Of a DNA stretch of 64,000 nt, positions 58,901 through 64,000 are shown in pieces. The stretch is taken from the NCBI RefSeq assembly GCF_050320075.1, contig NZ_CP190018.1. One strand, written 5' to 3'. The stretch is from Escherichia coli. Lineage in GTDB: Bacteria > Pseudomonadota > Gammaproteobacteria > Enterobacterales > Enterobacteriaceae. Each line of letters starts with the position of its first letter. Within the stretch, counting starts at the first letter, position 1. The position numbers were made by a program.

Positions 58901-61900
58901 AACGCGCCCAGGTATCGCTCTGTTCCCAGCAAATGCTGATATGCGGATAACGTAAAAAGGTGTCCAGATTCCACGTTTCATGCAGTGCCGGATGATCTTT
59001 TCGTAACCAGACGCAGGGCACATCACTAAACAGCACTTCATAATCAATGGCTAACGGTAGCGAGCTTAACAGCTCCCGCGAACGGGGATGACTTTCGCGA
59101 CCGGAAAAACCAATATCCACTTCACCACGAGTAATGGCATCTAAGGAATCGTAATCCCAGTTACGTAATTTGATGGTCGCCTGCGGGTAACGTTGGTAGA
59201 TCCGTTTCGACAGCGCATTAAGCATGATCATCATCAGCGGCGATTCCGCCGCCAGCTCAAACTTCAGGCCGCGCGGTGTCTGGTGATGCGGTTTATCCAG
59301 CAGCAGGTTGCTCATTTGCATCCACTCCGCCAGATTTTGCTCCATGCTGACCATTAGCGGTGTGGGCGACAGCCCCAGCGGTGAGTTCACAAAGAGCGGG
59401 TCGTCAAACCACGCTCTTAACTTTGCCAGCGACTTACTCACCGCCGAAGGGGTCACGTTCATCCGCTTCGCCGCTTTGGTCACGCTGCGCTCCTGCATCA
59501 GCAGTTGCAGACAGAGCAGCAGATTGAGATCAAGCGTGGTGATGGATTTCTTCATGAGCGGCAACCGGGCGTCCAGGCGCGACGAACATAATCAGCAACA
59601 GGCTCACTATGCTACAGGCAATCAGAATCCCGATCAGCATATTCCATGCGCCGATACCAACCACCGCTGCCAGCCAAATCCACAGTGACGAACCGCAAAC
59701 CTGCGCAATACCTAAGGTCGAGCTGGCTACGCCCGCGCGTAATGAAAACGGCCCTAACGCCTGACTCATCGCTACGCCAAAACCTACCGAGAAACCGGCG
59801 CAAATCAGCGTGATACCAAACAGAGAAACCGCATGGGAAGGTGAAACGGCAAGGGTGATGCCCGCCGCCAGGAATAATACCTGCGAGGTGATCATCAACG
59901 TACGTGGCTTAAAAATTCCCAGCGCAAATGGCGTGGAGAATGAAACGGTCATGCTGACGCCAGCGGTCAACGCCATAATGGTGGCGTATTCTCCGCGCTC
60001 AAAACCCATGATTTCCATCAGCAATACCGGCGACGTGTTGACGAAGGTGAGGATCACCGAAACGCTGAGGGTGGTGATAACAACACGGCTGAGGAAAAAC
60101 CGGTTAAGCAGCGACTCGCTATTTTCTCGTGGTTTGTCCGAATTTGTGGGGGCCGCAGGGCGCGTTTCTTTTAAAATAAACAAAGACAACATCAGTACCG
60201 CGATGCCCATCGTTGCCATCGTCCAGAACAGACTCTGCCACGGGAATTTAAGCATAATCAGGTGTCCGAGCACTGGCGCTAACACCGGAATGATGCAGGT
60301 AATGCCGTTGAGTAACGACAGCACTTTAGCCCGACGTCGATCATCCAGTGTGTCGCGTAAAATGGCGAACGCAACCACGTAACAACAGCCCGCGCCCAGC
60401 CCCTGTAGAAAGCGCCCTGCAAGAAATAACGTGCTGGTTTCAGCCAGTGAACAGAACACCGAGGCGATAATAAATAGCGCCGCGCCGGGTATGGCGACAG
60501 GCTTTCTCCCTGAACGATCGGCCACTTTACCGGCAAATAACATCGCAGCTGCCATGCCCGCCAGATAAACGGAGAACGCAATATGCAACTGCGCTTCGCT
60601 GGCATTGAGATCGGCGGCGATGCGCGGTAAACCAACGAGGTACATATCAATCCCGGCGGGATAAAGTAAAACCAGGGCAAAACTACAAATCAAAAAGCGG
60701 GACATGGGCTAAAGCGTCCTGATAGTAAGGTGACGCAAAGCATACGTGGTGAAGGAGAATCAGGCGAGTTGCCATTTGGACATAAGTGATTTCCTGACAG
60801 GCAATAAGCCAGCGAAATGGCTGGCTTCTTGAAGGGATCAGCCAAATTTAGGTAACACGTTAAAGACGTTACCGAACCAGCATAAAATTACGGTTATACC
60901 AAAGAGAATGACAATCGCCGGAATAAGATTGCCGCCCCAGACCGTGAACATCTGATTGGGAAACTTCTTGCGAGCTTTGATTGCCAGCACCGCGGGGATA
61001 ATGACCGCCCAGATGGTGGCACACAGTCCGGCACCGCCGATCCCGTAAATGAAGCCGTTCGGGAAGATCAGATACAACAACGCAGGTGGCAGGAAGGTTA
61101 ACAGCACGGTTTAGAAACGCCCGCCGTGGGAGTTATCAATCTTAAACAGATCCGCCAGATAATCGAACAACCCCAGCGTGACACCAAAGAACGAACTGGC
61201 AACAGCTAAGTTGGAGAACACCAGCAGGCAAAACTCGATAATGCCGTGCTGTTTGGTGCCGAGGAACGATTTGACCAGCGAATCAACGTTGCCGCCTGAG
61301 GAGATTATCGCCTTAAAGCTTTCTCGTGGGATATTCCCCATCGTGCAATAGAGCCAGAAGAGATAAATCACCAGCGCCAGCAGCGAACCGAAGACCACGC
61401 TTTTGATTAGCTTATCTTTGCGTTTGCCATAGCAAATAATCAGGCTGGGAATATTGCCGTGGAAACCAAATGACGCCAGACACACCGGCAAAGCCATAAA
61501 GATATACGGGAAATAAGATGTACCCGCAGTGGTGCTGGTGGAATCGCGCAGAATGGAGTAATCGACCTGGAAGAAGAAAGAACCAAAAACAATTACAAAG
61601 GAGATAATCTTCAGCCCAAGGAACAATGAGGTAATACGACTGGCGGCTAACGAGCTTATCCACAATACGCTGGCAACGAAAATGGCTGTGCAGATCCCGA
61701 CAATACGTGGATTAGCGTGATAACCCAAATTCATTGATATCGTTTCACTAATGATCGCACCATTAGCAGAGATATAGGCATAAGTGAGGATATAGAGAAC
61801 GAAGGCAACGGTAATACCGCTGATAATGTTCCAGGTGTTACCGATTAAATCTTTGGTGATGGTGTTAAAACTGGAGCCGACGGGATAATTTAAATTTGCT

Positions 61901-64000
61901 TCTAATAACAACAACCCGGAATGAAGCATTGAAAACCAGGCAATGATAAGGATAAAGGCACCCCAGAAAAACCAGGCACCGGCAAGATCAACAGGTAAAG
62001 CAAACATACCTCCACCAATTACTGTACCTGCTATAACCATAACACCCCAAAATGCAGAGTGCTTTTTTTCAGCTTGATCAGTCATGATGCCACCTTTAGA
62101 GGAAGGCTATTTTTGTTATTGAGGATGTAGGGTAAGAGAGTGGCTAACATCCTTATAGCCACTCTGAATGTTTTAATTAAACTTCTTTCAGTTTTGCGGT
62201 GAAGTGACGCAATACTTTCGGTTCGTAGGTAAAGGTTAACCCTTTAATATTCGCCGCGTTCTCTTTCACATGTTTAAAGGCTTCAATAATGAAGTCCATA
62301 TGTGTTTGAGTATATGTTGCACGCGGAATGGTTAAACGCAGCAGTTCAGCCGGGCATGGCAGTTGTTTACCGGTTTTCGGATCGCGGCCTAACAGGAAAG
62401 AACCAATTTCTACCGCACGGATACCGGCGACTTTATACAGCTCGCACGCCAGCGCCTGTGCCGGGAACTGGTCTGCCGGGATATGCGGCAGCAGTTTACC
62501 GGCATCAACGAATGCCGCGTGACCGCCCGCCTGCTGGCAGACAACGCCAATCTCTTCCAGACCATCGACCAGATACTGTACCTGCGCGATACGATAAGCC
62601 AGCCAGTCCAGATTCATGCCGTCATACAGACCTACCGCCAGACGCTCCATCGCGCCGCCTTCCAGGCCGCCATATGTCGGGAAGCCTTCCTGTACCACGC
62701 AAAGGGTTCTGCATTCGGTGTACACATCAAAGAAGCTGTCGTCTTTCATGCACAGCAAGCCGCCCATCGGCACCATCGCATCTTTCTTGGCGGACATCGC
62801 CAGCATATCGGCATATTTGTAGGTTTCGCGGGTGATCTGCTCGATGGTCCAGTCTTTGTATTCTGCTTCACGCTGCTTGATGAAATAGGCGTTTTCAGCA
62901 AAGCGTGCGGAGTCCATTACCACCGGAATATCGTATTTCTTCGCGATGCTGTACATCGCTTTTAAGTTTGCCAGTGAAACCGGCTGACCACCTGCAGAGT
63001 TACTGGTGATGGTCGCAACGATATACGGCACGTTATTCGGGCCAACTTCTTCAATGCCGCGTTCTAATCCCTCAAGGTCAAAGTTGCCTTTAAAGTCGTA
63101 ACGCACGCCCGTATCGAAGGCTTCTTTGATATAGACGTTACGCACGGTACAGCCGTTGATCTGGCTATGGCCCTGCGTGGTATCAAAGAAATAGTTAGAG
63201 AACGCCACCATTTTGCTGCGATCCAGGCCTTTTTCCTGCTCGCGTTTTTTAATCAGTACCGGAATATAGATTTGTTCTGCACCACGGCCCTGGTGAGTCG
63301 GAATAGTGTATTGATAACCAAAGATATTTTTTACTGACTCGGCTAACGCATAGTAGCTGCGGCTGCCGCTGTAAGCTTCGTCGCCGCGCATCATCGCGGC
63401 CTGCATACTCTGCGTCACCGCCCCGGTGCCGCTGTCGGTCAGTAAATCGATAAACACATCTTCGCTATCCAGCAGGAACGGGTTCATACCGGATTTAATA
63501 ATTGCTTCTTCACGATAAGCGCGAGTGGTACGTTTTACTGGCTCAATAACACGGATGCGGAACGGTTCAGGGAGATGTTTAAAGTTTTCCATTACATAAT
63601 CCTTCATTTATTTTAATTACAGTGATCCCTGTGAATATTACATCTGCAATATCCATTAATTCGCCAGATATATATGCAAGCACCATCATTTACTAAAACA
63701 AGTAAATAAACGAGAGATGGCCTTTGCAAAAGGCAAAATTAAGATATAGCAAACAAATAGATCACATTGAATCTAATCGGTTTGGCTCTGGTGATGGCTA
63801 CAGAAGGGCAAATCAAGGGCGATGATCAACAATCTTGTTGTCAATATTGAACCATTTTGAGGTCACACATATATGTAAGATATTCATAATGCACTTATCC
63901 TCGAAAGACACGAGGCTACAGTATAATACTCAAGAAATTTGTCTATTCTGAAATTGTTTAAATGTGAATCGAATCACAATTAGATATTGGATGTGTTTGT

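Follow-up and report, generated by a model that had tools for sequence, protein, structure and literature searches.

The tna operon lies on the minus strand close to the end of the window (the whole 64,000-nucleotide stretch of Escherichia coli contig NZ_CP190018.1 that was analysed), and it raises the question of whether its tryptophan permease gene, tnaB, still encodes a working transporter or has been inactivated by the internal stop codon that interrupts its frame. Two matters are involved, namely whether the stop is present in the strain or only in the record and, if it is real, what the shortened product would still be able to do. The features concerned are these.

62085..60838, minus strand: tnaB, tryptophan permease gene, with its frame interrupted by TAA at codon 325 of 415
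61114..62085, minus strand: tnaB codons 1-324, the portion still expected to be translated, with about eight hydrophobic segments (from the ORF list and hydropathy)
61111..61113, minus strand: premature TAA at tnaB codon 325, through a change at base 61113, which on the gene strand is T here and A in all relatives (AAA, Lys)
60838..61110, minus strand: tnaB codons 326-415 and the native TGA (60838-60840), now an untranslated remnant that codes for the last three hydrophobic segments
61105..61107, minus strand: in-frame GTG at codon 327, 3 nt past the TAA, the sole nearby candidate for re-initiation (speculative)
63813..63887, minus strand: tnaC leader peptide gene, intact, MNILHICVTSKWFNIDNKIVDHRP plus stop, 24 aa; position taken from the annotation of strain YZLc1-3, which is identical there
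62177..63592, minus strand: tnaA, tryptophanase, intact, 471 aa; 1010 bits to equivalog model TIGR02617; one terminal stop only; identical to YZLc1-3
60705..59530, minus strand: mdtL, the gene after tnaB, starting 133 bp beyond the native tnaB stop
60806..60827, minus strand: 8-bp G+C-rich hairpin, AAGCCAGC-CAUUUC-GCUGGCUU, 11 nt downstream of the native stop of tnaB and without a U-tract

The tnaB reading frame and its operon

The initial annotation had described tnaB as split into 324-aa and 89-aa open reading frames in the same frame, and this is borne out both by the ORF list, where the two occupy 61111..62085 and 60838..61107 on the minus strand, and by straight-through translation. Read through, 62085..60838 comprises 415 codons and the native stop with one internal stop only, at position 325, and the minus-strand junction runs GGG CGT TTC TAA ACC GTG CTG. 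The placing of the TAA at 61111-61113 proved exact, the altered base being 61113, and the total of 415 codons given there for intact TnaB is reached as 324 codons, the stop (Lys in relatives), Thr326 and a further 89.

Both pieces are recognisably parts of one protein; the N-terminal piece scores 717.8 bits against the equivalog model NF007235, whose curated cut-off is 497, and covers positions 1-324 of 415 in that model, and the C-terminal piece scores 183.4 bits over positions 328-415 of 415. The known counterpart, E. coli TnaB (NF007235; subfamily TIGR00837), shares the locus, the gene order tnaC-tnaA-tnaB-mdtL and 1,247 of 1,248 nucleotides, and because of this identity to an intact annotated tnaB the pattern is no chance split of an ORF. 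Unlike intact TnaB, the window has TAA for AAA at codon 325, a product of 324 rather than 415 aa and three hydrophobic segments fewer. The gene is where TnaB is expected, directly downstream of tnaA within tnaCAB on the minus strand, and the intact frame of about 415 codons that is also expected of it is broken at codon 325. Intact orthologues carry a sense codon in place of the stop, and the gene is otherwise colinear, which is the pattern of a point-nonsense pseudogene; given the internal TAA, the locus therefore counts as a tnaB pseudogene or null allele and not as functional TnaB. Its appropriate annotation is a single pseudogene interrupted by a stop at K325, not two genes, and this has little significance beyond the strain.

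The other two genes of the operon, tnaA and tnaC, were said to be intact and both indeed translate whole (471 aa and 24 aa, respectively). As tnaB is the final gene of tnaCAB, polarity inside the operon is no issue. The hairpin downstream of tnaB folds with an MFE of -16.1 kcal/mol (z = -2.3) and may be where the operon ends; it is not called by a terminator consensus scan. That scan gave no promoter-like sites, and terminator-like sites at no more than chance level.

Close relatives and the rarity of the TAA allele

A megablast search with tnaB against 5,426 complete E. coli genomes returned no 100% match, the best records being 99.9% identical, that is, with one mismatch. Over 25 kb the nearest records are YZLc1-3, from chicken faeces in China, and Ec-U3, from human urine in Burkina Faso, and in both of these tnaB is annotated as intact (WP_001551923.1). 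A base-by-base comparison of window positions 29001-64000 (35,000 bp) with YZLc1-3 gave a single difference, at 61113, where the plus strand has A in the window and T in the relative; on the gene strand this is an A-to-T transversion that turns AAA (Lys325) into TAA (ochre). Codon 325 is likewise AAA in Ec-U3. The sense codon in other E. coli tnaB sequences, to which the initial annotation had pointed as the natural comparison, is thus AAA (Lys) in YZLc1-3, Ec-U3 and metagenomic copies, and its suggestion that an otherwise colinear gene carries either a nonsense point mutation or an error of sequencing is supported, with one base differing from the nearest relative.

The choice between these two depends on how rare the allele is and how clean the surrounding sequence is. 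When an 81-nt probe centred on the TAA was compared with the 5,426 complete E. coli genomes, 5,423 records matched and none was identical, and the exact TAA 32-mer was absent both from a collection of metagenome contigs and from a collection of species-representative genomes; the control 32-mer with wild-type AAA matched 43 metagenome contigs, and all 33 complete ungapped metagenomic tnaB copies were intact with AAA at codon 325. The TAA allele is a singleton among the searched collections, and it is therefore either very recent or artefactual.

Two public contigs of about 1 kb that exactly encode the 324-aa product were considered and rejected as further sightings, for both end inside the wild-type AAA codon ("...TTTCAA" and "...TTTCA") and are contig-end truncations. 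Among the metagenome contigs with the wild-type 32-mer, two from human gut carry indels elsewhere in tnaB, one a 47-bp deletion at positions 713-759 (L014) and the other four gaps (L028), possible causes being natural disruption or misassembly at low coverage. No paper was found in the literature on the K325* allele or on any natural tnaB nonsense allele, and papers that mention tnaB along with a nonsense mutation or premature stop codon deal with other topics, e.g. base editing of trpR.

If the stop were an error of sequencing, assembly, polishing or record keeping, codon 325 would truly be AAA in the strain and its tnaB would be intact. The failure to meet the allele anywhere else, whether in E. 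coli genomes, metagenome contigs or representative genomes, speaks for such an error, as does the reduction of the two apparent further sightings to mere truncations, and so does the position of 61113 as the sole difference from YZLc1-3 across 35 kb. Differences that depend on assembly do exist in this comparison, since 28 alignment columns differ from YZLc1-3 in the first 29.4 kb and 25 of them fall in or beside the rRNA operon. Against an error stand the nature of the change, a clean transversion unlike the homopolymer indels typical of long-read errors, its location outside any Dam (GATC) or Dcm (CCWGG) motif, and the state of the remaining sequence. Outside the rRNA operon region the whole 64 kb has just three single-base differences from YZLc1-3, at 25199, 9862 and 61113. 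Apart from the tnaB stop, the 58 kb of non-rRNA sequence thus holds just two, one private to each genome, which suggests a low error rate in both assemblies. Taken with the evidence on both sides, an error seems to us unlikely, with a chance that is still far from negligible.

The two other differences deserve description in their own right. The allele at 25199, in kup, is the common one in the window and a rare one in YZLc1-3. At 9862, in hdfR (plus strand, about 9628-10467), it is the window that has the rare allele, CGT to TGT, giving R79C in the LysR-type regulator HdfR; an 81-mer with the R79C allele was found in one of 5,425 E. coli records (strain EC130, from a pig). Single-base changes private to the window (hdfR) and to YZLc1-3 (kup) are what is expected of two genuinely diverged isolates, and the pair do look like genuinely diverged close relatives with private changes in each. 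Both of the window-private changes in the roughly 58 kb of non-rRNA sequence, hdfR R79C and tnaB K325*, are non-synonymous. The 25 of 28 columns at the rRNA operon lie in tight patches within 10905-13918 (5S-23S spacer, 23S and 23S-tRNA-Glu spacer), which is typical of rrn-copy heterogeneity or gene conversion, or of differences in repeat assembly.

Considering all of this, we think it probable that the TAA represents a recent, strain-private A-to-T change (K325*) and a null allele of the low-affinity tryptophan permease gene tnaB. The loss of tnaB in nature would not be unprecedented, because the gene is grossly disrupted, in that no one location spans 80% or more of it, in 43 of the 5,424 genomes with a match (approximately 0.8%). 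Disruption of tna in other E. coli and Shigella is likewise natural inactivation of a tna operon gene, and IS insertions and deletions are reportedly behind indole-negative Shigella, as Rezwan and co-workers are said to have described in 2004. Unlike the IS insertions and deletions of tna elsewhere, the window has one point nonsense change in tnaB only, with tnaA intact, in one genome and not fixed in a lineage. It is an ordinary strain-private knockout of a well-known gene, or possibly a sequencing error, and it involves no new system or mechanism.

The truncated product and the codons beyond the stop

Members of the aromatic amino acid permease family have 11 transmembrane segments, following topology work on Mtr. 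In the repaired TnaB sequence hydropathy places hydrophobic segments at about residues 14-32, 43-61, 87-105, 128-146, 154-172, 230-248, 282-300, 328-346, 351-369 and 387-405, and there is probably a further, less hydrophobic segment near residue 200, under the threshold used. The stop falls just ahead of the last three peaks, 328-346, 351-369 and 387-405, leaving the full set of about 11 transmembrane segments incomplete.

The C-terminal piece of tnaB, now beyond the stop, aligns to positions 313-381 of 381 of the aromatic amino acid transporter model TIGR00837, and it also runs to the ends of the models for the paralogous aromatic amino acid permeases Mtr (327-413 of 414) and TyrP (316-402 of 403), which belong to the same family and length class as TnaB. 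The N-terminal piece scores 406 bits against the Mtr model and 166 bits against that of TyrP, compared to 718 bits for the TnaB equivalog. The missing stretch corresponds to the C-terminal portions of the TnaB, Mtr, TyrP and TIGR00837 models, and it therefore belongs to the conserved fold instead of forming a dispensable tail. A search by sequence gave no solved structure of a relative on which the lost helices could be mapped. From the topology and the conservation across the family, the 324-aa product is expected to be non-functional.

One way in which activity might nevertheless survive is a two-piece permease, in which re-initiation at GTG327 yields an 89-aa fragment (helices 9-11) that joins the 324-aa fragment (helices 1-8) to give a partly active transporter. 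There is said to be a precedent in LacY, which Bibi and Kaback reportedly split in 1990 into fragments that assemble. The in-frame GTG lies only 3 nt past the stop and has a weak Shine-Dalgarno-like GGCGGG upstream, for which the anti-SD duplex is -5.5 kcal/mol, compared with -7.2 at the native start of tnaB; at about 12 nt, however, the spacing departs from the usual optimum, around 11% of gene positions score equally well, and the GTG is simply the ordinary Val327 codon of every intact allele. Moreover, the split is kept in none of 5,423 genomes, and an arrangement absent from all of them is therefore not one maintained by selection. With these points against it, we hold a two-piece permease to be very improbable.

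Full-length TnaB could also be restored if the stop were read through or suppressed, by an ochre suppressor tRNA or by programmed recoding. All that speaks for this is the otherwise perfectly intact gene, and a recent origin of the stop accounts for that just as well. Three tRNAs are encoded in the window, all with normal anticodons (Trp CCA, Asp GTC and Glu TTC), and no suppressor tRNA is among them; the stop is not conserved in relatives (0 of 5,423 records), and the promoter and terminator scan shows nothing notable near it. Both release factors recognise UAA, which is not known to serve as a recoding codon in E. coli. Readthrough of this stop is accordingly barely credible, and loss of the permease is the reading carried forward here.

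Expected physiology and other interrupted genes in the window

For the null allele, the proposed sequence of events is that a T-to-A change on the plus strand at 61113 would have converted Lys325 from AAA to ochre, that translation would end after residue 324, and that a product without the last three of about 11 transmembrane segments would have lost its function as a permease. Induction through tnaC and tryptophanase itself should be unaffected, tnaB being last in tnaCAB. When the tna operon is expressed, TnaB is described as the chief route of tryptophan entry, and the uptake relieves Rho-dependent termination at tnaC, which closes a positive feedback loop (PMC6443796); with most tryptophan uptake lost under tna-inducing conditions, this loop between uptake and induction would be weakened. 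Formation of indole and catabolism of tryptophan from external tryptophan would be lowered, with some uptake left via Mtr and AroP. Some compensation for the missing TnaB could come from Mtr and TyrP, which are encoded elsewhere.

Deletion of tnaB is cited as cutting indole production by about 20% (PMC11091664), and because Mtr and AroP remain (PMC11091664, PMC6443796), indole should be reduced and not absent. With tnaA intact, the strain should therefore stay indole-positive. The initial annotation had claimed that low-affinity tryptophan uptake would be abolished; we infer that TnaB-mediated uptake would indeed be lost, and for indole the expectation is refined to a lower level. If the allele is real, the strain would be a natural tnaB null with an intact tnaA, taking up less tryptophan and probably making somewhat less indole, which could be relevant to work on indole signalling, biofilm or tryptophan catabolism with this isolate. 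It is highly improbable that the null tnaB acts together with HdfR R79C as an adaptive within-host lowering of indole signalling, or that the locus encodes a split transporter started at GTG327.

Other genes in the window are also interrupted in the recorded sequence. The LysR-type regulator gene yidZ (58606-59564, minus strand) is split by a frameshift into ORFs of 232 aa and 122 aa, and since a yidZ frameshift pseudogene is also annotated in YZLc1-3 and Ec-U3, this is a feature of the lineage and not private to the strain. The type III secretion system (T3SS) effector gene espY4 (about 52345-54752, plus strand) has a frameshift at an A7 run at 54265-54271, where Ec-U3 has A8 and an intact gene; the frameshift is common to YZLc1-3, in which the gene is annotated as 'frameshifted', and its cause could be genuine slippage or else a homopolymer error made in both assemblies. 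Between phoU and espY4, an IS1 element with an IS1B-family transposase (about 50780-52036) sits beside a truncated type III effector gene, a reading that rests on the annotation of the identical region in YZLc1-3. In relatives, a gene for a ShET2/EspL2-family type III effector toxin lies directly upstream of the tna promoter region (L001 35287-37455), which corresponds to a position just past the end of the window (64000 onward). Together with espY4, this gene means that T3SS effector genes flank the tna locus on both sides in this lineage.
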